The translations under genes and the position numbers were made by a program. A stretch of DNA of 64,000 nt from Minisyncoccota bacterium (GTDB lineage: Bacteria > Patescibacteriota > Minisyncoccia > Phycocordibacterales > UBA2100): the NCBI GenBank assembly GCA_965267345.1, contig OZ253947.1:202814-266813 (forward strand), given 5' to 3'. Below, piece by piece: positions 4,251-36,318 of this stretch. The notes under the pieces were generated by a model. The model had not been told where the DNA came from. It was given only the letters and a program-made list of their open reading frames with translations, and did no database searches. The number at the start of each line of letters is the position of its first letter. Within the stretch, counting starts at the first letter, position 1.

Positions 4251-4913
4251 ATGGACGTTGCACTCGAGCCATCGTGGAAAACACACCTTGCACCGGAATT
4301 CACCAAGCCGTATTTTACGGAGCTTCGCGACTTTGTGCGCAGTGAATACACGAGTGCGACGGTGTACCCGCATCCCAAGCAGCTCTTTCGCGCATTTGAC
4401 CTGTGTCCGTTTGACGCGGTGAAAGTGGTGATTCTTGGTCAGGATCCGTACCACGGACAAGGGCAGGCAAACGGCCTGTGCTTTGCGGTGAATGAAGGAG
4501 TCACGCTCCCGCCGTCATTAAAAAATATCTTTAAAGAAATCGAGAGTGACATTGGGCACGTAGCTGAGCATTCAGGCAATCTTGAACGATGGGCGCGGCA
4601 GGGGGTGCTACTGCTCAACGCGACACTAACAGTGCGCGCACGCACTGCTGGCTCACATCAGGGGAAGGGTTGGGAAGAGTTTACCGATGCGGCGATCCGA
4701 GCGCTTTCTGAAGAGCGCGAACACCTCGTGTTTATGCTTTGGGGTAAGTATGCGCAGCAAAAAGGGAAGGATATCGATTGGACCAAACACCTTGTGCTTG
4801 AGGCGCCGCATCCATCGCCGTTTTCAGCACACAGTGGCTTTTTCGGCTGCAAGCATTTCAGTCAGGCAAATGAGTATCTAAAAGCGCACGGCAAAACACC
4901 CATCGAGTGGTAG
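4251..4913 (+). CDS. ung: Uracil-DNA glycosylase (family 1)
   Basis: GQDPYH water-activating motif, AVNEGV, LLLNATLTV and HPSPFSAH (HPSPLS motif). Start at the internal ATG 4251. Confidence 0.9.
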   Translation: MDVALEPSWKTHLAPEFTKPYFTELRDFVRSEYTSATVYPHPKQLFRAFDLCPFDAVKVVILGQDPYHGQGQANGLCFAVNEGVTLPPSLKNIFKEIESDIGHVAEHSGNLERWARQGVLLLNATLTVRARTAGSHQGKGWEEFTDAAIRALSEEREHLVFMLWGKYAQQKGKDIDWTKHLVLEAPHPSPFSAHSGFFGCKHFSQANEYLKAHGKTPIEW

Positions 4914-4922
4914 CGGCAGCGC

Positions 4923-4943
4923 GCACGAGGACCGCCCTCGTGC
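4923..4943. terminator. GC hairpin 10 nt after ung stop (possible terminator, no U-tail)
   Basis: GCACGAGG-ACCGC-CCTCGTGC, a perfect 8-bp stem. Confidence 0.4.
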
Positions 4944-4963
4944 AAAGCTGGTTGCACCCGCAT

Positions 4964-5058
4964 AAACAAGGACCGACCTTGTTGTGTCGCATACAAGGTC
5001 GGTCCTTGTTTACTTGGCTCTGCGAGCGAGCCTTAGCGAAACAAGGTCGGTCCTTGTA
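4964..5058. repeat. Three copies of a ~19-nt hairpin-forming element in a convergent intergenic region
   Basis: AAACAAGGACCGACCTTGTT at 4964-4983. Its reverse complement ACAAGGTCGGTCCTTGTTT at 4993-5011, so copies 1 and 2 form a ~19-bp inverted repeat. A third copy AACAAGGTCGGTCCTTGTA at 5040-5058. Confidence 0.5.
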
Positions 5059-5082
5059 TATGGGAGGGATTTTTTGTGTTGG

Positions 5083-6153
5083 TTAGAGTCGGGTGTTGAT
5101 CGTTTCAACCGGCTCAGGGGTTTCTTCAACCGTGAACGTTTCGCGGCCGATCAGTACGCCGCGTGACGTTTCGACGTTGCAGCGCCATGTTCCCGCGGTA
5201 AGGCGGCCGGTTTGTGTGTAGCCGCGGAAGCCCTCATCGCGTCCACCGGCAATACCAAACGGGATACGCGAGACAGTGCGCCATGAGTCGGTGCCCGCCT
5301 CATAGACTTCCCAGCGATGTCGAATATTTGTTTCCAGCCCGGGAGGTGCAAAGACTGAGCTAAAGCAGAACGCATCTGCGCCGGTGCGGTGGTGGAACGT
5401 ACTATTAGTGTCCCGCCAAAATGCGTACCACTCGGGTTCTTCGTACTCTGCCAAGTAGACGCTCCCTTCGCGCGTGACGTGGTGGTAGATACCAATATGT
5501 TTCAGTGCGAGTGGTACCGGCGGAATGGCGTGAATAAAGTAGAGAAACATAAAGACTATGGCAACGGCACCAACCGAGAGCTTCATAGTTTTGAAGCGAA
5601 CGGTAACGTCTTCTGGGGTGACGTACTGTACGAGGGTAATGAGTCCGGCAGCGATCGCCAGCGCAACAGCGACACTACCGAGGAATGTCCATACGCTGAT
5701 ACTCCCGACGATGATCGGCACGACGAGCGCGGCATAGGTGAGCAGCAGGACAAACCAAATGACAACCCGCAGATGTGCTCGTGCGTAGCGATTTTTCAAA
5801 AACTCATTTCCGAGAAAGAGAGCCGCGAGCATACTGAGAAAAATCGCACTACCCACCAATGTACCCGAGCGCGTATACAGGATGAGCAGTGCACTCGCGA
5901 GGTTACCGAAACTGAATTGCAGTACACCTAGTAGCGCAATGCGGTAGTATTCTGTGCGCGCAACGGTACGTGACTGCAATGTAACAACGGCAATAGCACT
6001 GAGTGTGAGGTAGCCGATGATAACGGCGTTTTCAAAGAACGCATCAGGACGATTGAGAGTAAAGATATCAAATACGAGTCCCGCGATGAGGGCGAGTGTT
6101 GGAATAAAGGGCAGGTAGGGTTTGAGATAGTGGGGAAGCGAAATACGCGGCAT
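5083..6153 (-). CDS. Polytopic membrane protein with C-terminal soluble domain, hypothetical
   Basis: 356-aa ORF with about 8 predicted TM helices, then a ~110-aa hydrophilic Trp/Arg-rich C-terminal domain. Confidence 0.6.
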   Translation of the reverse strand: MPRISLPHYLKPYLPFIPTLALIAGLVFDIFTLNRPDAFFENAVIIGYLTLSAIAVVTLQSRTVARTEYYRIALLGVLQFSFGNLASALLILYTRSGTLVGSAIFLSMLAALFLGNEFLKNRYARAHLRVVIWFVLLLTYAALVVPIIVGSISVWTFLGSVAVALAIAAGLITLVQYVTPEDVTVRFKTMKLSVGAVAIVFMFLYFIHAIPPVPLALKHIGIYHHVTREGSVYLAEYEEPEWYAFWRDTNSTFHHRTGADAFCFSSVFAPPGLETNIRHRWEVYEAGTDSWRTVSRIPFGIAGGRDEGFRGYTQTGRLTAGTWRCNVETSRGVLIGRETFTVEETPEPVETINTRL

Positions 6154-6253
6154 ATAGCCCTATGCTAGCAGAGACAGAAGACGTTATCCACGCAAGGTCG
6201 TACACAAGAGCACCAGACGCGTATACTAGGAGTGATTAACAGCTTTAATCGTA

Positions 6254-6478
6254 TTGCGTATCATGGATATTCTTACAACACTTCAGGTGCTTGCGTTAGT
6301 ACTCGCTCTCGGTACCGCATACTCGTGGTATCAATTTTATAAGGTGCTTGCAAAAAAGTGCGATACCTGTTCAGTTGATTTGCACCAGAGCCCTTTCAAA
6401 TCAAAGTGTTTTGTGGGCGCTGTCTTTTTCACTGCTGCATTTGTTCTTGCGCTCTACGCGCTATCGCTAGTAGCCTAG
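6254..6478 (+). CDS. Small membrane protein with CxxC pair, hypothetical
   Basis: 74 aa with two TM helices flanking KKCDTCSVDL...KSKC. Confidence 0.4.
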   Translation: MRIMDILTTLQVLALVLALGTAYSWYQFYKVLAKKCDTCSVDLHQSPFKSKCFVGAVFFTAAFVLALYALSLVA

Positions 6479-6501
6479 TATAGGAAACTGTATACAAAAA
6501 A

Positions 6502-6533
6502 ACCGGGACAACTTACGTTGCCCCGGTAGTTTT
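6502..6533. terminator. Bidirectional hairpin terminator between convergent genes
   Basis: ACCGGGACAAC-TTAC-GTTGCCCCGGT (11-bp stem, 1 mismatch), A7 upstream and AGTTTT downstream. The stop codon of the minus-strand ORF lies in the loop. Confidence 0.6.
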
Positions 6534-6767
6534 CAGTGTGTCGATCTCCGAGCGCGGATATTGTCTTCCAGTCGCTCCACATCTCAAATCTCCGCGTCGC
6601 GGGTTGAAATGTGATGGGATGTAGAGTTTATCTGCGTCGTTATCTCTCTGAGAGAGCCAAACGTTCCCACCACACTCCGGGCATTGAATCTGCACAGGAG
6701 AAGCGCTAGGGAGCGACGGTGCTGGTGCACCCGAGGGTGATATCTTCCGCCCTGTGTAGCGATCCAT
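6513..6767 (-). CDS. Small protein with CPECGG zinc-ribbon-like motif, hypothetical
   Basis: Good Shine-Dalgarno GGAGG 7 nt upstream of the ATG. Contains CPECGG...C. Its 3' end overlaps the terminator stem. Confidence 0.45.
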   Translation of the reverse strand: MDRYTGRKISPSGAPAPSLPSASPVQIQCPECGGNVWLSQRDNDADKLYIPSHFNPRRGDLRCGATGRQYPRSEIDTLKTTGAT

Positions 6768-6923
6768 GTTGTACCTCCATCAAAGACCCACCGCCCCCAA
6801 GAATGCTGGAGTGGGTGCTCAAAGTCAATAACACACTAGTCCACACGTCGTACGTACGCACACAACGGTGCTTGGTATGTAGTGCTATGCTAGGAATAAT
6901 GAGAGAGGTAGTTATGACGAGCT

Positions 6924-9900
6924 ATGGATGGGATTGAACGCGGCACTGGCGCCGGCAAAACTCCTGACGGAGATGTTGAGGCAAATGAACAGGCGCTTGC
7001 GCGGGAAGAGATCCACAAGGCTCTTGAAGGAAAGGGCGAACTGTCTGACATTCCTGCTACTGTTGCAAAAATAGTTGAGCAAGCAAATGAGCGATCGCGG
7101 GGATTCTCACCGAAAATATCCTCGGAGGATCTCACATCAGTGCTCACGAGCGTGCGTGAAGCACATCCTGAATACGCAGCGGCACTTGAACAAAAGGCGG
7201 AGCGACGGGCGCTCGAACAAGTCATCTCACGTCTGTACGCCATCGATATGGTTGGACGCATGCGAACGTCAGCCACGAAACGCTTTGAGTTGGAAGTAAA
7301 AAAAGCACAGCGGCAGTTACAGAGTGCACAGACAAACGAAGAGAAAGAAGAGGTACGCAAAAACCTTGAAACCCTCAAGAATGATATTGAAGCAGAACAC
7401 AAAAAGTTTGCCGACATGGAGAGGAAAGTGCGTACGGCGTCAATCGAAACGTCGGTGCAAGATATTCTGGATGATGCGATACCGGATACCTTAGGGGTGA
7501 AAGACGCAATGGGTCGCGAGGCGATCAAAAATACCGTGCGCTTTGCACGAGGAGCTATTGATAAAATGAAAAACCGAGGCAAGCCTGATGCTGTCGGGTT
7601 CCTCAAAACTATCCAAGGGAAATTACCATCATTCTATCCGCGTCGCGGTGAGAGTGACCAGGTAAAAGAAAGTCGCGAAACAGCCCGCGAAGTAGCCAAG
7701 GATCTCAGCATCGAGATTGCTGAGCTCAATGAGTATGGCGATCGTGACATTCGCAAACAGCCCGTATACCCGAAAACACACTTCCGCTGGTGGCATCCGC
7801 AGGAGATGGCAGCACGAAGTGGCATTGGTCGCGCTGGTGAATGGGTCACCTCATATCTGGAAACACTGGGGCTTGTGTCGGCGTTTTCATACGGTGTTGC
7901 TACGACGCTTGACTTGCCACCTGTCTCGCTTAGTAACAACCCGGTTGGCTGGAGTGCGCTTGCCGTTGCGACAGGAGCACTTCTCGTGCGACAGTCGCTC
8001 GCATTCAAATCTGATGTTGAGAAAGAAGCACTCAGATCAAAGCGCACACTATCAAATAAGATTCCCGTATGGATGTTCCCACTCCGTGCTGTTGCCAGTA
8101 CGCTTGAGACAACGGGTATTTTTCTCAAAACTGCAGCAAAACATCCGGTGCGTGCATCGGCTGCAGGTATATCAACATGGGCAGTTGGTACCGCATTGAC
8201 GAAAGCCATACTTATCTCCTTGCAATCGCAAGCAGTGACCGAACAGGGTGTTGCGGGTCATGTGGATGCGGTGAAGCAAGAGTTGAGCCAGCTCGAAGAC
8301 GTTGATGGCCTTACGCCAAGTATGAAGTTGTTTGATGGTCTTATCGATCTTTCAGGATTCGTACCTGAAGGAATGTTTGGCAGCAATCAACCGAAAGAGC
8401 GGCAGCCAGGTGAAGGACTCACGGTGACGGAGCGTGTTGAAAATCAGCCCGACGCTCTTTTACATAGAATGCAGGTAGCCATTAAAGCAGAAGCTGGCGA
8501 CCCTGACGCCATGAGAGAGGCAAAAAAGTGGGGCATCCCACTGTCGGGAACTGCTGGATTGGGACCGCGTGCCGTTGCGCTAGCACAACTCATTGGCCTA
8601 ACGCTTGATGAAGCGCGAGCACTTACCGGTCGCGATGACGGCACCATTCAAGAGACGTCAGCAGAGGTGCGCGCAGGACGTGAGAAAATCCGCACTTTCG
8701 CACAATCACACGGTCTTAGTGACTATATGATCGAGGAGGATATGCAAGATCCACAACTGGTGGTGCGTGCACTGTCTGAACAGTTCAGTGATTCGATCAG
8801 TGATGACATTTCAGAATTCACCAGTAACTACGATCTATTCTTCAGCACGATTAATGATGTGACATCAGCAACGACTGCCACAGCATTTATAAACACACTC
8901 GGAGCGGGACAACCAACACCGAGCCCAGATGACGTGAAGCGAGCAGCTGACCAACTCAAAGCATCGGCTCGAAACATTCAGACCGAGTACGATGAGTACA
9001 GCAATAAGGTATCCGATTTGAGCCGGATTATGGGCGAGAGCATTAAAGCAGTGTACGTTGAAAACAATACCGCAGGAGCACAGTTTATCGATGTAAACAA
9101 AATCGCACTTACTCCTGAACCACTGAAGCTTGATTTCACGAACCTCGACCGCATGGTTGCCGATATAGAGACGACGATGCAGGAAGTGGGGGTCGATAAG
9201 CGCCCTGATGCTATTGGTGATCCAAAAGCTGAGCAGACGCGCTTTGAAGAGTACATGCAGGACGCGGGGATTCGCCTCGACAACCTTGCCGAGTTTTTAA
9301 GTCCCTTTAACGAGATTGAAACCATTGTCGCACTTGAAGCGGGTGAGGATCTCGATCCGGAAATTCGTGACCAACGCGTATTTAATAAAACTATGCAGAT
9401 TCTTGGCATGTCATTGGCGATTCAATTTGCAATGCTACTTGCCGTGAACATTCCGGCAACGCGACGATTGCAACGCGTGCAGGAACAGTGGGGCGAACAA
9501 AATTCGGAACTCATTACCAATGCGGAAGGGCAGATTGTCGACTTCATACACAAGCGTATGAACCGACTCATACATCAGGCACATGCAACGATTAATCGAC
9601 TCGAGAAAAAGCACAAGAGTGTTAAATTCGCGTTCCCCTATGAGCCGGTTGCGCAGAGCGACGTACGACGAGTATTGCGTGCGGTTGGCACTGAAGACTA
9701 CATCAAACAAAACCAAATCATGCAGCTTCTGAGTAAGGGTCCCGACATTGATTTGTCAATCAACAATCGATACTCAAACTGGCTTTTTGCCCTTGGGGAC
9801 CACAAAAATGTTCAGACTATTATTAACGAACTCTTGCCGGGCTGGGACGATGGGCGCCGCCACATTGAGCAGCTGCAGCGTGAATCAGGTGAGAAGCCGG

Positions 9901-27511: not shown

Positions 27512-28507
27512 ATGCAAAAAATTATTATTGGAGTAGTGGCTTTAGCACTGGTTGTTGGAGGAGGCCTCCTCCTGGCTAATGGTAATGGAACTGAACGACC
27601 ACTAGAAAACAAAGTAGGCGCCACTATTTTTCCGGTCTACGACATAGCGCGACAAATTGCAGGGGAGGAGTTTGAGGTAGTGCTGTTATTGCCTGCCGGA
27701 GCCTCACCGCATACCTTTGATCCGCAACCAAGTGTGGTGCGGGGTCTTGAAGGTGCGCGAGCAGTGTTTGCTATTGGCCATGGTTTGGACCAATGGTCTA
27801 AAAATTTGACAGATTCTCTTGATATTCCTCGTGTTGTTGTTGACGGTCATATTGAACTTAGGGAATCGCATCATGAGGAACACGGAGACGGACACAATGA
27901 CCACGGACATAACGATGATACACATGAGGACGGGCACCATGACCACACAGATGAGCATGAGGAGCATGAAGAAGGTGACCATGGACACGAGCACGGACCA
28001 ATTGATCCACACTACTGGCTTTCTCTTGAGAATGGGGCTCATATTGCAGAGAACATTGCCGAAGAACTCGGGAGGTTGGATAGTGAGAACAAAGCACTAT
28101 ATCAAGCACGCGCAGAAGCTTACGGCGCTGAGCTTGACTCGTTGCGCGATGAGTTGCGAGACGACCTTTCACCACTTGGCAATCGAAACATCATCTCACT
28201 TCACGATGCGTGGTTTTATTTTGCAGACGCGTTTAACTTGAGCATTGTTGGAACGTTTGCGCCGTCTGCGGGAAAGGAACCCACACCCCAGTACCTAGAG
28301 CGGTTACAAGAGGAAGTTCTTGAACAAGGGGTTCAGGTTATCTTCATCGAACCTCAGTTATCAACAGACTCTATTCGAGCTTTCGCAAATGATAACGCGC
28401 TTGACATCGCAGTACTTGATCCTCTTGGAGGAGTTGAGGGGCGACAAAGTTATATCGATCTGATGCGCTATAACGTAGAGCAAGTGGTATCAGCCCTCAA
28501 AGAGTAG
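27512..28507 (+). CDS. znuA: Zinc ABC transporter substrate-binding protein with His-rich loop
   Basis: TroA/ZnuA fold motifs ATIFPVYDIA, GASPHTFDP and DPHYW, plus a His/Asp/Glu-rich insert (HHEEHGDGHNDHGHNDDTHEDGHHDH...). N-terminal membrane anchor. Confidence 0.9.
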   Translation: MQKIIIGVVALALVVGGGLLLANGNGTERPLENKVGATIFPVYDIARQIAGEEFEVVLLLPAGASPHTFDPQPSVVRGLEGARAVFAIGHGLDQWSKNLTDSLDIPRVVVDGHIELRESHHEEHGDGHNDHGHNDDTHEDGHHDHTDEHEEHEEGDHGHEHGPIDPHYWLSLENGAHIAENIAEELGRLDSENKALYQARAEAYGAELDSLRDELRDDLSPLGNRNIISLHDAWFYFADAFNLSIVGTFAPSAGKEPTPQYLERLQEEVLEQGVQVIFIEPQLSTDSIRAFANDNALDIAVLDPLGGVEGRQSYIDLMRYNVEQVVSALKE

Positions 28508-28508
28508 A

Positions 28509-29222
28509 ATGAGTGAGACCATTATACAGCTTGATGATGTCTCCTTTGGCTATAGTAAGCGCGGTTTTATCGTAGAAGGGATTTCATTTGAGATCCCAGA
28601 GGGCTCGACGACCATGCTTATTGGTCCAAATGGTTCTGGAAAAACAACAGTGCTTAGGTTGATGGTTGGCTTGCTAAAGCCCGAAAAGGGAGTGGTGCAG
28701 GTTTTAGGGGGCACACCAAAAGCACAGCGTGCACAAATCGGGTATGTGCCGCAACGTCTTGATTTCGACAGAACATTCCCATTTACTGTTTTAGAATTTT
28801 TGCGATACTCTCATCGCGAAACTCACGCCGAAGAAATACTTGCCCTGCTGGAGAAACTCGGCGTACGCAAGCTTTCAGATGCTTTGATTGGGAATTTGTC
28901 GGGAGGTGAATTGCAGCGGGTGCTCATAGCCCGCGCGCTGTTGTCAGATCCGAAAGTCCTGTACCTCGATGAACCAATCAGTGGGATTGATGTTGGCGGC
29001 GAAAGAAATTTCTATGACCTGATCGCTGAAATTAAGCGCGAACGCAATATTACGATCGTAATGGTTTCGCATGAGCTACATGTGGTGAGCAAAATAGCAA
29101 CTCAGGTTATCTGTATCAATCGGAAAATGTGCTGCAGCGGTGAGCCAAGTACGGTACTCGTTCCAGAAGTACTGGAGGAAATGTATGGTAGAGAAGTGTC
29201 GGTGTACCACCACAACGTATGA
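28509..29222 (+). CDS. znuC: Zinc ABC transporter ATP-binding protein
   Basis: GPNGSGKTT, LSGGELQRV and LYLDEP. Confidence 0.9.
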   Translation: MSETIIQLDDVSFGYSKRGFIVEGISFEIPEGSTTMLIGPNGSGKTTVLRLMVGLLKPEKGVVQVLGGTPKAQRAQIGYVPQRLDFDRTFPFTVLEFLRYSHRETHAEEILALLEKLGVRKLSDALIGNLSGGELQRVLIARALLSDPKVLYLDEPISGIDVGGERNFYDLIAEIKRERNITIVMVSHELHVVSKIATQVICINRKMCCSGEPSTVLVPEVLEEMYGREVSVYHHNV

Positions 29223-30034
29223 TTGATATTTTCCAGTTAGAATTTATGCAACGAGCGTTTATTGCAGGACTGGCGCTTGCACCACTGCTGTCTGTGCTTG
29301 GTGCCTTTGCGACGCTGCGAAAGATGTCCTTTTTTTCTGAAGGAGTAGCGCATGCCTCCTTGCTCGGGGTAGCGTTAGCAATCATAGCCGGTGTAGTGCC
29401 TTTTTATGGTGCACTTGTGATCGGACTAGTTCTCGGGGTAGTGATATTCATCCTAGAGCGTTATACAAAAATAGCCTCAGATGCAACTATCGGTATTATT
29501 TTTACGACCGGAATGGCGCTTGGAATCTTACTCATTTCGCTAGAGCCAGGATATCAGCCCGACCTCATTAGTTTTCTGTTCGGGAACATTCTTGCTGTGA
29601 GCTGGGGTGATGTATGGACGATAGTTGTGTTGTCGTCCGTAATACTTTTCTCTGTCTATCTGTTCTATAAACAGTTAGCATTATTGGCATTTTCTGAGGA
29701 AATTGCGTGGACGTCTGGATCAAACACCACGTCTTTGAATCTGCTTTTCTACGCCCTGCTTTCATTAGCAACAGTGCTTGGGGTGAAGCTACTGGGGATC
29801 ATCCTTGTGAGTGCCCTTTTAATTGCTCCAGCTGTTTCCTCAAGAGTTCTCACGACTTCTTTTAATTCGTATGTATTTCTCTCGGTACTATTTTCAGTTG
29901 TTTCCTTTGTCGTTGGACTTCTTTCTTCCTACTATCTCGACATACCGTCAGGGGCTTCAATTGTTCTTACTGCGACGCTCCTTTTCGGCTTAGTTCTTTT
30001 GATTAAGCCGTTCACACAACGATTGCCACACTGA
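29219..30034 (+). CDS. znuB: Zinc ABC transporter permease (ABC-3 family)
   Basis: 8-TM ABC-3 permease that overlaps znuC by 4 nt. Confidence 0.9.
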   Translation: MIDIFQLEFMQRAFIAGLALAPLLSVLGAFATLRKMSFFSEGVAHASLLGVALAIIAGVVPFYGALVIGLVLGVVIFILERYTKIASDATIGIIFTTGMALGILLISLEPGYQPDLISFLFGNILAVSWGDVWTIVVLSSVILFSVYLFYKQLALLAFSEEIAWTSGSNTTSLNLLFYALLSLATVLGVKLLGIILVSALLIAPAVSSRVLTTSFNSYVFLSVLFSVVSFVVGLLSSYYLDIPSGASIVLTATLLFGLVLLIKPFTQRLPH

Positions 30035-30168: not shown

Positions 30169-30552
30169 CTATTGCTCAATAACGGCCTTTAGTTTTTCTA
30201 GCACCTCTTGAGTGAACGGATTTTCTAATTCTCCTTGGTCTACCCACTCAAAATACTCCATCTCAGTTTTATTATCGTTGAGCGATTTGTAGGTATATCG
30301 CACATTGTAGTTTTTATCAGATTTCTGAAGAGTGAAGATTTTGTCTTTTTCGTATTCAGTTACGTAGTAAGTATCCCAAACTCCACTTTCGTCACAGTTC
30401 CTGTATTCCGTCCCTATTTTTGTGGGGCTAGTATCTCGCTGTTCTTCAATCAGTCCATCAATCCAAAGAGGTGTGTTGTTAGGGTTGGTGGTGAATTCAA
30501 AAACTTCGGAAATTGGCCTATCTATTTTTGTTGAAACTTTGTTTTCTTTCAT
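30169..30552 (-). CDS. SRPBCC (Bet v1/polyketide-cyclase-like) protein
   Basis: 127 aa. MKENKVSTKIDRPISEVFEFTTNPNNTPLWIDG... is a typical SRPBCC N-terminus. Confidence 0.6.
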   Translation of the reverse strand: MKENKVSTKIDRPISEVFEFTTNPNNTPLWIDGLIEEQRDTSPTKIGTEYRNCDESGVWDTYYVTEYEKDKIFTLQKSDKNYNVRYTYKSLNDNKTEMEYFEWVDQGELENPFTQEVLEKLKAVIEQ

Positions 30553-31055
30553 ACATTTTTCTGATCAGCAAATCTGCCTTTTTCATGTTTTATCTCGGGA
30601 GCAAGAGGGTTTTTATTTCTTTCTTGCATTGATTGAGGAACTTGATCATAAGGGACGAGATGTACCCCTAAAGAAACAAGAGATTGTCTAATGTTCTCAA
30701 TCTTTTCTTCTTTTAGTGTAGGAACTTCAGAATAAGAGACGAGTTCGCCCTCTAACTTTTCAGGGCTTTCTTCGAAATATGAGCCATCTAGTTCATAAAG
30801 AAATCCTGCGTTGTTGAGTAAAGCTAGCTTGCCCTCCTGAAGTTTATCTACATACATTTCACCATTGTCAGAAAAAGAGACAGCTAGTTCGTCACCTGTT
30901 CCGTAGATCATGGCGATTGCGTATCTTTTGTCAGCAGTAGCAAAAACTACCCCTCTCCCATCTACTGCCTTGTGTGGAGTTGGTTTGAAGGTTTGAATGT
31001 TGCCAACCCTTGATCCATGATATACGTTCATACTATGAATTTTATCAAAACCCAT
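30549..31055 (-). CDS. Hypothetical protein (168 aa), island cargo
   Basis: No homology recognised (MNVYHGSRVGNIQTFKP...GRGVVFATADKRYAIAMIYG). Overlaps the SRPBCC gene by 4 nt. Confidence 0.5.
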   Translation of the reverse strand: MGFDKIHSMNVYHGSRVGNIQTFKPTPHKAVDGRGVVFATADKRYAIAMIYGTGDELAVSFSDNGEMYVDKLQEGKLALLNNAGFLYELDGSYFEESPEKLEGELVSYSEVPTLKEEKIENIRQSLVSLGVHLVPYDQVPQSMQERNKNPLAPEIKHEKGRFADQKNV

Positions 31056-31495: not shown

Positions 31496-31684
31496 CTATT
31501 GTTGGGACTTTTCTTTTTTCTTAGCTCTTTTTCGATCAATCCACGAAGCCCCTAAAAAGAGGGTTAGGATCAACAATGGCGGAAAAAGTATCCCAATGAC
31601 CAAACTGCCCCAAAAGTTCTTTTTCAACTCTTTATCAGACATTCTCCTTGGCTTGAACCAAGAAGTTTTTTCTTCTTTATTCAT
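31496..31684 (-). CDS. Small membrane protein, hypothetical
   Basis: Start MNKEEKTSWFKPRR. One TM (GSLVIGILFPPLLILTLFLGASW) and a K-rich tail. Confidence 0.35.
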   Translation of the reverse strand: MNKEEKTSWFKPRRMSDKELKKNFWGSLVIGILFPPLLILTLFLGASWIDRKRAKKKEKSQQ

Positions 31685-31918
31685 ATTGTTCGCGTAGGTT
31701 TTACTTGTAATGATTGTGAGCAGGCAACAGAAAAGGCCACACAACTCACACCGATAGCTCCTTTCAGAACTACCCGACACCCTTTCGGGTGAAGACCTAC
31801 GCGAATAAGTGGCGGTTTATGTGGCCGTCTCTATTCGCGTAGGATTTATGTCACCATGCCTTCAGAAATCTGAAGGGTTAGGTTTGTAAATACATTATAT
31901 CAAATCTCGCCCCCACCT

Positions 31919-33010
31919 CTAGCTCGTAGAATTCTGCTCCTGCCTTACAAAAAACTGTACGGCATGTGGGTTATGCAGATGAACTAAGTATGTTTTTACT
32001 GACCTCTTCTTTCCTCGTACAAAAATTTTTCCAGAAAATCTGTATTGCTTCTTTGTAATAAGATCTTCGTGTTCAGCATGTACAGCCCTACATACCTTGT
32101 TCATAAAACTCCAATTTTTGATTTTGGCACTACCAATTACGTAGATGTTCTCACATGCTTCATGTATTGACCCTCTAATTCTTGAGGCATGAAGTTCAAC
32201 ATCGTTACGATCTCGAGTAGCTTTTGAAGCAACAATTTTTATCGTACATCGTGTATATTTTCCCCTGAATGTCTCTTCTACTGATGTGTCTCCAACTTCT
32301 CTCTGAGAAAAGTTTTCGAGAAATTTGATCAGGTCATTCACTTCTACTATGATCTCTTGGTTTGGCTTTTCAAGAAAAACCTTAGAACCTAATGTTGAAA
32401 GCTCCTGTACTAAAATTGGGAAAAACACACCCAATTCTTGTATTTTTTCAAATTGCTTGATGAGTAATCTCAGATCGTCATCTTGGGTAAGGTTAGGAAC
32501 AATATAGTCGTTCATAAATTGTTCGAGCGCTGAAGGGTATTCGTCTTTCAGGATTTGTTGTGTTGCGTAAAGATCCAAAGATTTCTTTTGTTTCTTTGAA
32601 AGATGTCTCTTCGATCTGTTTAGTAAAGTTTCAGAGGTGAAAATATAGGTAGCATGTACGAAATTCTTTGTTTTATGTTTTCTGTCACGCATAACGACTA
32701 TGACTTCATCCTCATCCCACACCAAACCCTCGTCTTCCTCATTTCCAATCCAGTGTACTTTTACTCTTGGGAAAGATGTAGTAGTGTTTGTCTCGACAGA
32801 TCTAACAAATGAATTTACCCGACCTTCAATGTCATTCTTTATTGCAAGGTATTCTGCTTTCTTCCAAAATAAACTGACAAATTCCCAGAACATTGCTAAC
32901 CACTTTTTTACTTTGTCAGGATTTTTGAAAATGACATAGACAACAATAAGGGTCAGTACTACCCCCGCGGAAAAACTAGATAAAAGTTGTACAATACCTT
33001 GTTCAATCAT
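31919..33010 (-). CDS. Membrane-anchored 363-aa protein of unknown function (island cargo)
   Basis: N-terminal TM (IVQLLSSFSAGVVLTLIVVYVIF), then a ~330-aa cytoplasmic K/E-rich domain. Translationally coupled (ATGA overlap) to the upstream zinc-ribbon gene. Confidence 0.6.
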   Translation of the reverse strand: MIEQGIVQLLSSFSAGVVLTLIVVYVIFKNPDKVKKWLAMFWEFVSLFWKKAEYLAIKNDIEGRVNSFVRSVETNTTTSFPRVKVHWIGNEEDEGLVWDEDEVIVVMRDRKHKTKNFVHATYIFTSETLLNRSKRHLSKKQKKSLDLYATQQILKDEYPSALEQFMNDYIVPNLTQDDDLRLLIKQFEKIQELGVFFPILVQELSTLGSKVFLEKPNQEIIVEVNDLIKFLENFSQREVGDTSVEETFRGKYTRCTIKIVASKATRDRNDVELHASRIRGSIHEACENIYVIGSAKIKNWSFMNKVCRAVHAEHEDLITKKQYRFSGKIFVRGKKRSVKTYLVHLHNPHAVQFFVRQEQNSTS

Positions 33011-33270
33011 AGCTTTTTCTTTCTTTCATCAAGGTATTCTGTTAGTGAAGTGATACACTCGGGATCATCACAAATCATATTTATTGCCCCAGATTGAGGC
33101 AAAATTGAGTACAAATTTTCATTCGTTATTTGTTTGCCACAGAACTTACAATTTTTCTTGCCAGAGTCAAAATCCTCTTTTGCCCCCATTTTGCCAAGAA
33201 GTGTATCTAGGTCTCTTTCGTGTACAGTGTTCAATTTTCTTTTATCGGTTTCGTCCATAAAGTTTTCCAC
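33007..33270 (-). CDS. Small zinc-ribbon protein (87 aa), first gene of two-gene operon
   Basis: CKFCGKQ, 22 aa, ICDDPEC. Acidic N-terminus. Confidence 0.55.
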   Translation of the reverse strand: MENFMDETDKRKLNTVHERDLDTLLGKMGAKEDFDSGKKNCKFCGKQITNENLYSILPQSGAINMICDDPECITSLTEYLDERKKKL

Positions 33271-33597
33271 ACCTTTCTGTTTACAAATGTGTGTTGATAC
33301 AATCCATTATACCCCTAAAACAAAGGATTTCATACTGCTAGCAGGATACTTGTCTCACTCTATTTAGCTTTATTGTAACGTTGTTTATCTGTTATAATAG
33401 ATACACAATCGAATATGGTTTAGTTTTTGAGGGCTTTATGCCATTCCGCTGACCTATCAAATAAATCAGCGAGCAAACTTTTTTGAATTCCGAAAATTGA
33501 ACACTCAACTATCTTTGGATTTTTGGTGTTTAGCTTTCGGGATTTTCTTATTGAAGCAATCGTCCAGGTCCAAGATCTTGGTCGATTGTTTTGTTTT

Positions 33598-34707: not shown

Positions 34708-36285
34708 ATGAAGGCCGTAGTTTATGCACGAGTATCCTCAAAACCCCAACAAGACACAGGGTATTCTTTGCCTGCACAAAGAAAACTGGCAAACGAATAT
34801 GCAGACAGGAAGAGTATCGATATCGCAAAGATTTTTTCTATCGCTGAAAGCGCTAGTGGAAAACGGGAACGACAGGTTTTTGCAGAGATGATTGAGTACA
34901 TGAAAAAACATGACATCAACAATCTTTTATGTGAAAAGGTTGACCGATTGACACGAAACCTAAAAGAGGCCGTTACAATAAATGAATGGCTTGAGCAAGA
35001 CAAAAGACGTCAAGTACATTTTGTAAAACAGAACCTAGTTATCCATCAAAATTCAAAGTCGGATGAGAAATTTCGCTGGGATATTGAAATTGTTTTGGCA
35101 AAGAAATTCATTGCCAACCTGTCAGAGGAAGTGAAGAAAGGTCAGCGTGCAAAAATTGAAGCAGGTTGGCTACCAACAAAGCCACCTTTGGGATATAAGA
35201 CCATTGGAGAAAAGGGGCACAAAATTCATGTTGTAGATGAAGATGTCGCACCTTTTATCAAAAAGATGTTTGAACTGTACGATACAGGAAACTACTCAAC
35301 TCGAGAACTAGGTAGAAAAATGTTTGAGCTAGGATTACGAAATAGGAACAGTCGTGAAGTTGGAAAAAGTAGGATTTACGATCTTCTATCTGATCCTTTC
35401 TATTATGGAGATATGAGGTGGAATGGCGAAATCTACAGAGGTAAGCAAGAACCACTGATATCAAAGGAGTTGTTTCAGTCAGTACAAAGTAAGTTGAACA
35501 GAAAAATGAGTAGCCCTTACTTCAGCAAGCACAATCCTGTGTATAAGGGAAAGATCAATTGTGGTGAGTGTGGACGAAGAGTTAGTTGGGAAAAACAGAA
35601 AGGTACTTGGTATGGAGGGTGTAAAAACTGCAAAGCGCAGTTAGGAAGCAAAAAATATATTAGGCAAGATGAGGTAGACAAAGAGATAATGCAAAAGATC
35701 CTAGAGATTGCACCCAAGAATGACAAAATACTTTCGATACTTGAACGCGCATTGAAGGAAGATCATCAAAAGGAAATTGATCTCCATAAAGCTCAAAAAA
35801 CGGAGCTAGAAAGGTCTTTGAACCAAATAGATAGAAAGATGGCTCTAATGTACGATGATCGGCTCTCAGAGCGAATTACCCCTGAAGTGTATGACACCAA
35901 CTTCAAGATACTCAAAGATCAAGAGCGTGACCTTTTGCGACAACAAAAACGTCTTCAGGAAGACAAAAGTGCTTATTATGAAGCAGGTTATTCAATACAC
36001 CTCCTTGCGTCTAAGGCAAAAGATATTTATGCAAGCAAAAAAGTCACCACCGAAGAGAGGAGATTGCTTTTGAATTACGTATTTTCGAACTTGTCCATAA
36101 AGCAAGGAAAACTAACACCAGAATACACAGAAGCATTCAAATTCATGCAGGAATGGACACCACGCCTAAATGCGAGTTTCGAACTTCAAAAAAGTGTTGT
36201 GAACAAAGGGCTAAATATCACTTTTAGCATACCTCGTCCTGTCTTGCTCCGCGGGCAGGATTCGAACCTACGACCTACCGGTTAA
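34708..36285 (+). CDS. Large serine recombinase (resolvase/invertase N-domain + recombinase domain + zinc ribbon + coiled coil)
   Basis: AVVYARVSSKPQQ holds the catalytic Ser. DRLTRN, a recombinase domain, a CGECGRR...CKNC zinc ribbon and a C-terminal coiled coil. The last ~13 codons read through the tRNA-Asn sequence. Confidence 0.9.
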   Translation: MKAVVYARVSSKPQQDTGYSLPAQRKLANEYADRKSIDIAKIFSIAESASGKRERQVFAEMIEYMKKHDINNLLCEKVDRLTRNLKEAVTINEWLEQDKRRQVHFVKQNLVIHQNSKSDEKFRWDIEIVLAKKFIANLSEEVKKGQRAKIEAGWLPTKPPLGYKTIGEKGHKIHVVDEDVAPFIKKMFELYDTGNYSTRELGRKMFELGLRNRNSREVGKSRIYDLLSDPFYYGDMRWNGEIYRGKQEPLISKELFQSVQSKLNRKMSSPYFSKHNPVYKGKINCGECGRRVSWEKQKGTWYGGCKNCKAQLGSKKYIRQDEVDKEIMQKILEIAPKNDKILSILERALKEDHQKEIDLHKAQKTELERSLNQIDRKMALMYDDRLSERITPEVYDTNFKILKDQERDLLRQQKRLQEDKSAYYEAGYSIHLLASKAKDIYASKKVTTEERRLLLNYVFSNLSIKQGKLTPEYTEAFKFMQEWTPRLNASFELQKSVVNKGLNITFSIPRPVLLRGQDSNLRPTG

Positions 36286-36318
36286 CAGCCGGTTGCTCTA
36301 CCGCTGAGCTACCGCGGA
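36247..36318 (-). tRNA. tRNA-Asn (anticodon GTT)
   Basis: The reverse complement reads TCCGCGGTAGCTCAGCGGTAGAGCAACCGGCTGTTAACCGGTAGGTCGTAGGTTCGAATCCTGCCCGCGGAG. It forms a cloverleaf with a 7-bp acceptor stem, T-loop GGTTCGAATCC and anticodon loop CTGTTAA. CCA is not encoded. Confidence 0.85.

Follow-up and report, generated by a model that had tools for sequence, protein, structure and literature searches.

What does a pair of overlapping genes, neither of which belongs to a named family, do on a mobile island of a Patescibacteria genome? The question is raised by a stretch of 64,000 nucleotides (nt) from a Minisyncoccota bacterium (GenBank assembly GCA_965267345.1, contig OZ253947.1, positions 202,814 to 266,813 of the forward strand; the whole stretch is referred to below as the window, and its first letter is position 1). 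Close to the middle of the window, at 31919–33270, a small gene encoding a putative zinc-ribbon protein is followed on the minus strand by a larger gene encoding a putative membrane-anchored protein, and a preliminary description of the locus, made from its letters and translations, had proposed that the two are island cargo and constitute a novel defence or abortive-infection module. Here we show that the two genes are one conserved functional unit. From the company that this unit keeps, namely restriction operons, islands and a phage, which amounts to strong guilt-by-association, we infer with about even confidence that it is an undescribed defence or abortive-infection module acting against phages or other invading DNA.

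Results

The small and the large gene are inherited together

The locus comprises the following elements:

31919–33010, minus strand: large gene, 363 amino acids (aa) from an ATG start, encoding a predicted membrane-anchored protein of an unnamed family
33007–33258, minus strand: small gene, 83 aa from the ATG at 33258 (a longer alternative from the GTG at 33270 has 87 aa)
33007–33010, minus strand: ATGA overlap of the small-gene stop and the large-gene start, read from the sequence (translational coupling)

The two-gene operon with a 4-nt overlap that had been described is indeed present: the open reading frames (ORFs) 31919–33010 (−) and 33007–33270 (−) have the ATGA in common, and the junction reads ...CTATGATT... 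The length of 87 aa originally given for the small protein is in need of revision. Since the GTG at 33270 sits within a Shine-Dalgarno-like box (GAAAGGTG), and since the database copy P0078 and all homologues begin at the methionine equivalent to the ATG at 33258, this ATG is most likely the start of the small gene.

Neither protein has a significant match in Pfam, NCBIfam, PADLOC or PHROGs, and profiles built from the full-length alignment, the C-terminal domain of the large protein and the small protein return only noise from the PDB sequences; a match to a known housekeeping family, which would have spoken against a defence role, was thus found for neither. A tblastn search of cultured-phage and plasmid collections with the large protein likewise gave no match. 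The large protein has 77 full-length homologues at E ≤ 1e-56 (37–69% identity, all unnamed), which come from Peregrinibacteria, Paceibacterota, Nomurabacteria, Saccharibacteria, Brennerbacteria and a few other metagenome bins, and a profile run against 1.84 billion cluster representatives (clusters at 50% identity) recovers 1,121 representatives at E ≤ 1e-3 and 896 at E ≤ 1e-10, nearly all of them 340–390 aa long. Given the 77 close homologues and the 1,121 cluster representatives, both genes are real and not chance ORFs. The family is centred on Patescibacteria, also known as the Candidate Phyla Radiation (CPR), and its distribution is patchy, with six hits among 185,579 species genomes in a single-pattern scan.

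We collected 62 loci encoding the large protein, 58 of which (about 45 distinct) include sequence upstream of the large gene. In all 58 a small ORF of 73–103 aa lies directly upstream on the same strand, so that the two are conserved neighbours far beyond the window, and the gap between them varies from −8 to +24 nt across the family. The pairing persists in relatives with 30–33% identity (L053, L054, L057 and L059), in a copy carried by a phage (L022) and in a 769-aa variant with fused S1 domains (L060). The layout is that of a type II toxin–antitoxin system: a small upstream gene overlaps a larger one, and the two are strictly co-inherited.

The pair is repeatedly built into restriction operons

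At six loci restriction genes run in the same direction as the pair and nearly abut it, at distances of −4 to +23 nt:

L021: hsdM and hsdS, then −4 nt, small gene, −8 nt, large gene, −4 nt, hsdR
L037: large gene, then +5 nt, hsdM-hsdS-hsdR
L024: C5 methylase, then +1 nt, small gene
L028: Eco57I-like methylase, then +6 nt, small gene
L016: methylase and TdeIII endonuclease, then +11 nt, small gene
L042: methylase and MvaI/BcnI endonuclease, then +23 nt, small gene

At a further locus (L007) NgoPII and Dcm are divergently adjacent to the pair. The linked restriction systems are unrelated in type, comprising type I, TdeIII, MvaI/BcnI, NgoPII and Eco57I-like systems. A DNA methylase or restriction gene lies within 5 kb of the pair at about 13 of the 28 loci whose flanks could be used; no endonuclease is nearby at about half of the loci, the window and the phage included. 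A census of 149 neighbouring ORFs from 19 loci is headed by the Pfam families N6_N4_Mtase (5), N6_Mtase (4), Methylase_S (4), DNA_methylase (3) and Eco57I (3), followed by recombinases and HsdR domains. Co-occurrence with defence genes, a check that the preliminary description had put forward, takes the form of operonic linkage to restriction genes at six loci elsewhere and is not seen in the window.

Two methylase fusions stand beside the pair. One (L043, 4891–6459, minus strand) joins a LexA DNA-binding domain and an S24 peptidase to a C5 cytosine methylase, and the other (L048, 3092–4849, plus strand) joins RadC (JAB) to a C5 cytosine methylase. At L030 a 364-aa PIN_12-domain protein (6729–7820, plus strand) is encoded on the same strand, 92 nt downstream of the pair, adding a further nuclease-type neighbour of a sort often met in defence or toxin loci. 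At L040 an ORF of 1,613 aa (4663–9501, plus strand) follows the pair on the same strand after 290 nt; it has no Pfam match at E ≤ 1e-5.

The pair travels on integrative elements and with a phage

Because its contexts differ between loci, the pair evidently moves as a unit. Large serine recombinases related to the one in the window are encoded within a few kilobases of the pair at four loci (L005, L007, L019 and L043), an rve integrase lies near it at L001, and tyrosine recombinases also occur in the neighbour census. Many loci have a tRNA gene close by, for example 163 nt after the large gene (L009) or 386 nt before the small gene (L011). The phage copy (L022) belongs to a genuine phage, with genes for the small and large terminase, the portal and head morphogenesis, and its pair is located just upstream of an orphan ParB-methylase and the terminase genes. 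In addition, the viral structure library BFVD holds one full-length structural homologue of the large protein, from a Siphoviridae contig (E = 3e-19, template modelling (TM) scores 0.76/0.80, 20% identity).

The large protein combines a predicted membrane anchor with an Alba-like domain

Using a 53-sequence alignment, AlphaFold2 (AF2) modelled the large protein with a mean predicted local distance difference test (pLDDT) score of 88.9 and a predicted TM score (pTM) of 0.84. Lysine and glutamate make up 17% of its residues and its overall isoelectric point (pI) is 9.1. Three parts can be distinguished:

32927–32998, minus strand: N-terminal hydrophobic helix, a predicted membrane anchor (codons ~5–28; hydropathy)
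32291–32863, minus strand: middle domain (codons ~50–240), alpha/beta plus helical according to the AF2 secondary structure
31973–32263, minus strand: C-terminal domain (codons ~250–346), beta-alpha-beta-alpha-beta-beta, with an Alba/SpoVS-like fold and predicted to bind nucleic acid

The hydrophobic N-terminal segment, interpreted from the outset as a transmembrane helix, is real: in 52 of 53 members the Kyte-Doolittle 19-mer with the highest score falls at the N-terminus (median 2.0), and the anchor helix is conserved by position and not by sequence. It is followed by an invariant Pro31 and then by a Trp-rich amphipathic helix, the N-terminal helices of the AF2 model being 2–12, 15–29 and 31–45. 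The charge bias around the anchor is weak and compatible with an N-out/C-in orientation (positive-inside). A signal-peptide or secreted reading was rejected on the grounds of this charge distribution, of the four-cysteine partner and of the cytoplasmic RNA-binding fusions of relatives (see below).

Foldseek comparison of the middle domain with the PDB gave only poor long-range alignments with a root-mean-square deviation (rmsd) above 9 Å. Across 192 sequences the conserved polar residues of the large protein are N66, N116, D146, E203, K210, E223, R237 and Y290, all but the last of them in the middle domain, and the conserved residues of these 192 family members form no recognisable nuclease, nucleoside triphosphatase or HEPN signature. 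The motif scan detected no Walker A in the large protein, as had been reported. An H-x-H motif, said at first to be missing, does occur once (HLH, residues 344–346) and is not kept in distant relatives. A nuclease reading was considered and rejected, both because the HEPN-like R-x4-6-H and E-x-K strings of the window copy are absent from the family-wide conserved set and because the conserved E203 and K210 fall in a helix.

The C-terminal domain is built from strands 255–259, 288–294, 318–331 and 334–346 and helices 272–283 and 297–313, an arrangement that includes the long beta3–beta4 hairpin of the Alba-like superfamily (Alba/Sso10b, SpoVS and Rpp20/25), and residues 241–363 have a pI of 9.9. 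Foldseek matches it to more than 20 PDB chains of Alba, Sso10b, SpoVS and Pop6/Pop7 with a probability of 1.00; the alignments span ~92 columns with target-normalised TM scores of 0.7–0.8, rmsd values of 2–3 Å and marginal E-values of ~5e-3. The sequence-level comparisons were negative: the Pfam Alba and SpoVS models do not match the large protein at E ≤ 1, a profile of the C-terminal domain finds no Alba chain among the PDB sequences at E ≤ 10, and hhalign of the domain against an Sso10b sequence gave a probability of 0.4%. Structure prediction with AlphaFold followed by Foldseek, as suggested in the preliminary description, has thus yielded an Alba/SpoVS-like domain. The earlier impression that the large protein holds no motif that can be placed accordingly stands for the middle domain, which has no convincing PDB match, and gives way for the C-terminal domain and for the RNA-binding fusions seen in relatives.

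Appended domains point to RNA binding

A few long relatives retain the N-terminal anchor and the core and append further domains at the C-terminus:

P0175: four S1 domains
P0178: a NusA-type KH domain
P0208: a cold-shock domain (CSD)
P0204: a weak RNB-type OB domain
P0171: TPR repeats

S1, KH and cold-shock domains are binders of RNA or single strands. Together with the basic character of the Alba-like domain, these fusions point to binding of RNA or single-stranded nucleic acid by the family, as judged from sequence and model. Since the fused domains are of RNA-binding types, the bulk of the large protein is probably cytoplasmic, which agrees with the weak positive-inside bias and with the four-cysteine partner.

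The small partner carries an invariant zinc-ribbon pattern

The CxxC...CxxxxC zinc ribbon that had been noted in the small protein proved to be a family trait: the cysteine pattern C-x2-C-x22-C-x4-C is invariant among 37 non-redundant partners, in which an N-terminal D-L-x-x-L-L helix is also invariant or nearly so. The description of the protein as acidic fits the window copy (pI 5.35) and not the family, the median pI of which is 6.7. The AF2 model (pLDDT 73) has helices at 14–23 and 27–31, a beta-hairpin at 49–63 that bears the cysteines and a further helix at 66–82. Foldseek comparison with the PDB gives only weak, generic zinc-ribbon matches (E > 0.3), and neither the AF2 model nor the PDB structure comparison reveals a recognisable DNA-binding fold. 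A profile search with the small protein returns stand-alone proteins of 57–103 aa only, and no fusions.

The island that hosts the pair in the window

The surroundings of the pair in the window, and the corresponding RNA at other loci, contain the following features:

31753–31884, minus strand: Rfam LOOT RNA (RF03000), directly after the large-gene stop
33306–33333, minus strand: promoter-like −35/−10 upstream of the small gene (ATGAAA-16-TATAAT, a 10/12 consensus match only)
34708–36285, plus strand: large serine recombinase (Resolvase, Recombinase and Zn_ribbon_recom), island context outside the module
36246–36318, minus strand: tRNA-Asn, overlapped by the 3' end of the serine recombinase gene (36246–36285)
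L005, 10426–10545, minus strand: LOOT RNA
L007, 4728–4856, plus strand: LOOT RNA
L043, 7977–8095, plus strand: LOOT RNA

The pair was rightly called island cargo, since the GC content is low over 30–36.3 kb (0.36–0.41, versus 0.52–0.59 in the flanks) and the serine recombinase gene overlaps the tRNA-Asn. The last codons of the recombinase overlap the 3' part of the opposite-strand tRNA, and L019 is alike (5015–5086 versus 5048–6670). This overlap suggests that the element integrates into the tRNA gene and provides the end of either the recombinase ORF or the tRNA. We searched for long direct repeats at the island ends and found none, as expected for a recombinase of the serine type. Note that promoter-like sites in the region are no more numerous than the shuffled expectation.

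Besides the pair and the recombinase, the island encodes an SRPBCC protein, a DUF6886-like protein, a DUF3892 protein, a small membrane protein and ribbon-helix-helix (RHH) and helix-turn-helix (HTH) regulators. The DUF6886-like protein (30549–31055, minus strand, 168 aa) is a weak match; at L005 a homologue of it (4801–5295, minus strand, E = 1.5e-6) lies upstream of the pair as its divergent neighbour, and the gene may be a second recurrent cargo of these islands.

The LOOT RNAs of the window, L005, L007 and L043 score 73–92 bits against a gathering threshold of 46.4. At the latter three loci the RNA lies ~3–4 kb from the pair, near the large serine recombinase. Because LOOT is found in four of the five serine-recombinase islands that bear the pair, it seems to be a trait of this class of Patescibacteria integrative elements, and not of the pair. 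A hairpin at 31859–31876 was considered as a terminator of the operon and rejected, as it lies inside the LOOT match and its coding strand has no T-run. An ORF of 94 aa (31496–31780, minus strand), called from the GTG at 31780, overlaps LOOT by 28 nt at its 5' end. Its start is probably later, for example at the methionine of 'MNKEEKTSW...', which would leave ~60 aa with one membrane helix; the ORF is not kept beside the pair at other loci. Just left of the island, a ZnuABC-like metal ATP-binding cassette (ABC) transporter is encoded at 27512–30034 (plus strand), consisting of a His-rich periplasmic binding protein, an ATPase and a permease. The GC content around it is 0.45–0.48 over ~24–30 kb, and this stretch of intermediate GC could be an older acquisition.

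Discussion

Precedents in known systems

In its predicted architecture the pair resembles two abortive-infection proteins. AbiP of Lactococcus consists of a membrane anchor and a non-specific nucleic-acid-binding domain, both of which are required for abortive infection; it prefers RNA over single-stranded DNA without sequence specificity, and it keeps phage DNA from being replicated and early transcripts from being switched off (PMC13064643). PdpSau, from Staphylococcus aureus prophages, is likewise a membrane-anchored nucleic-acid-binding abortive-infection protein (PMC10127798). The shared traits are a single N-terminal membrane helix, a positively charged cytoplasmic nucleic-acid-binding domain and carriage on mobile elements, the first two being predictions for our pair. 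The systems differ in that AbiP and PdpSau are single-gene systems of ~230–280 aa, whereas the large protein has 363 aa, an extra middle domain and an obligatory zinc-ribbon partner; moreover, the PdpSau region is described as OB-fold-like, while the binding domain of the large protein is Alba-like. The comparison is one by description; the structure searches of the viral and PDB libraries brought up no match to either system, and no staphylococcal or lactococcal phage protein is among the BFVD matches listed.

For the genomic placement, prrC offers a parallel: this anticodon nuclease gene reportedly resides within EcoprrI, a type I restriction locus, and is expressed together with it. Its soluble product, PrrC, unites an ABC-type ATPase with a nuclease domain and is conceived as a backup defence, acting on RNA once restriction has been defeated. 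The likeness lies in a non-restriction gene within, or abutting, a type I hsd operon, as at L021 and L037 and not in the window copy. Unlike PrrC, the large protein has no Walker motif and no HEPN or nuclease match (Pfam, NCBIfam, PADLOC), is predicted to be membrane-anchored and is also linked to type II systems. By analogy, we regard AbiP as the closest functional precedent and prrC as the closest precedent for genomic placement.

The C-terminal domain shares its topology, its size of ~92 columns and its basic character with Alba, Sso10b, SpoVS and Pop6/Pop7, and differs from Alba in that no sequence or profile similarity was detected. Alba proteins themselves are small and soluble, form dimers and occur mostly in archaea or eukaryotes. 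A census of the family lists only 55 bacterial proteins and does not describe a membrane-anchored architecture (PMC11621453). Two defence genes that came from functional selection and are almost exclusive to Patescibacteria, LdgA and DdgA (Dallas), were carried on inserts of 1–2.4 kb, are of unknown fold and function and are protective in E. coli, with Dallas behaving in an abortive-infection-like manner (PMC12366544). LdgA and DdgA are described as single causal genes and not as an obligate pair; they serve here as a lead, compared by description only.

Is the pair a defence module?

Several observations count against a defensive role. There is no restriction gene in the window, and no known defence gene is adjacent to the pair there; at several loci the pair sits among ordinary genes, mostly still beside a tRNA. 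The apparent enrichment of restriction genes near the pair is a comparison of ~13% of the neighbours here with ~1% of the genes in such genomes, the latter being our own estimate, assumed and not measured. The best matches of the two proteins in PADLOC-DB v2.0.0 (2023) cover short stretches at E-values of 0.0036–0.013, and no nuclease or pore-forming feature is evident in the large protein. The C-terminal domain is called Alba-like by fold only, since its Foldseek E-values are marginal and sequence-level signal is nil, and nucleic-acid binding by the large protein is a prediction. The proposal of a novel defence module, as originally made, gains from the restriction-operon, island and phage contexts and lacks a known defence gene next to the window copy; its function is deduced from context.

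An addiction module would account for part of these data. If the zinc ribbon neutralised a membrane-anchored toxin, the pair could stabilise its carrier, be it an island, a phage or a restriction operon, without sensing phage at all; the classic gene order with the small gene first, the stop/start overlap and the strict pairing all suit such a module, as does the fact that the pair resides on mobile elements and next to restriction systems, themselves addictive. We consider it unlikely nonetheless, as known toxin and antitoxin families (Pfam, NCBIfam, PADLOC) are unmatched, no DNA-binding fold that could serve autoregulation is recognisable in the small protein and the large protein displays no enzymatic or pore-forming motif. 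Addiction and abortive-infection defence do, however, overlap and are not cleanly separable. Somewhat less probable again is a role as an accessory to restriction, with the pair tethering or coordinating restriction at the membrane site of DNA entry, or regulating its establishment or alleviation, and providing no defence of its own. This is what the six co-directional loci at −4 to +23 nt would suggest, one of which has codon overlap on both sides in a type I operon. Yet the linked systems are of unrelated types, which makes a specific protein–protein partnership with restriction subunits unlikely, about half of the loci, including the window and the phage, have no nearby endonuclease, and the S1, KH and CSD domains added in relatives speak for RNA and not for duplex DNA.

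The same RNA-type fusions bear on superinfection exclusion, in which the anchored protein, placed at the membrane's inner face, would bind either the nucleic acid as it comes in or the machinery that ejects it, and the cell would survive: they better suit events after entry, and most copies of the pair lie outside prophages. We therefore think this improbable, even though a membrane anchor and a nucleic-acid-binding fold (both predicted), the presence of the pair on integrative islands and the location of the phage copy at a typical accessory-gene spot, next to the ParB-methylase and the terminase, would be in keeping with it. If, on the other hand, the fusions are taken as the hallmark of RNA-processing proteins, for which S1, KH and CSD domains are typical, the large protein might be an ordinary factor of RNA metabolism, a membrane-tethered RNA-binding scaffold with an RNase Y-like layout that merely hitch-hikes on islands, and some loci are indeed among housekeeping genes. 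The very patchy distribution, the variable contexts with tRNA-adjacent insertion, the position of the window copy in a low-GC island and of others in a phage and recombinase islands, as well as the absence of a catalytic domain, make this highly improbable.

A working model

Returning to the defence or abortive-infection reading, we propose that the large protein would be tethered to the membrane on its cytoplasmic side and, with no strong preference for particular sequences, would bind RNA or single-stranded nucleic acid. Its zinc-ribbon partner, produced in a fixed ratio to it, might keep it inactive or sense a phage-derived cue. Upon infection, or upon failure of a linked restriction system, the complex would capture or sequester phage nucleic acid or disturb phage gene expression, and the infection would be aborted. 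Binding or sequestration is favoured over cleavage because no catalytic motif is visible. The role of the small protein as sensor or antitoxin and that of the large protein as effector, along with toxicity and anti-phage activity, are thus what we infer from context and architecture. The most specific version, in which the pair is a new and widespread immune module that couples to restriction–modification systems whatever their type, with the zinc ribbon controlling a membrane-tethered Alba-fold RNA binder that stops phage gene expression at the membrane when restriction is bypassed, is offered more tentatively, as a possibility that we hold to be somewhat on the doubtful side.

Implications

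Even if the pair is not defensive, its linkage by codon overlap inside a type I restriction operon demands an explanation. A family that has no name in any of the libraries searched, that counts ~1,100 clusters and that has repeatedly been inserted into restriction operons is a concrete candidate for a defence system. If the model is correct, the large protein would be the first bacterial example of an Alba-fold protein anchored in the membrane, and the fold of archaeal chromatin and of RNase P/MRP would extend to a membrane-anchored bacterial protein. The pair would also add a second case, unrelated to the first, of the AbiP-type strategy, which is poorly understood and relies on holding a nucleic-acid binder at the membrane. 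Patescibacteria account for a large share of bacterial diversity, yet the defence systems recognised in this group are few; the pair would then represent a major uncatalogued defence of these ultra-small bacteria, mobilised by serine-recombinase islands and phages.

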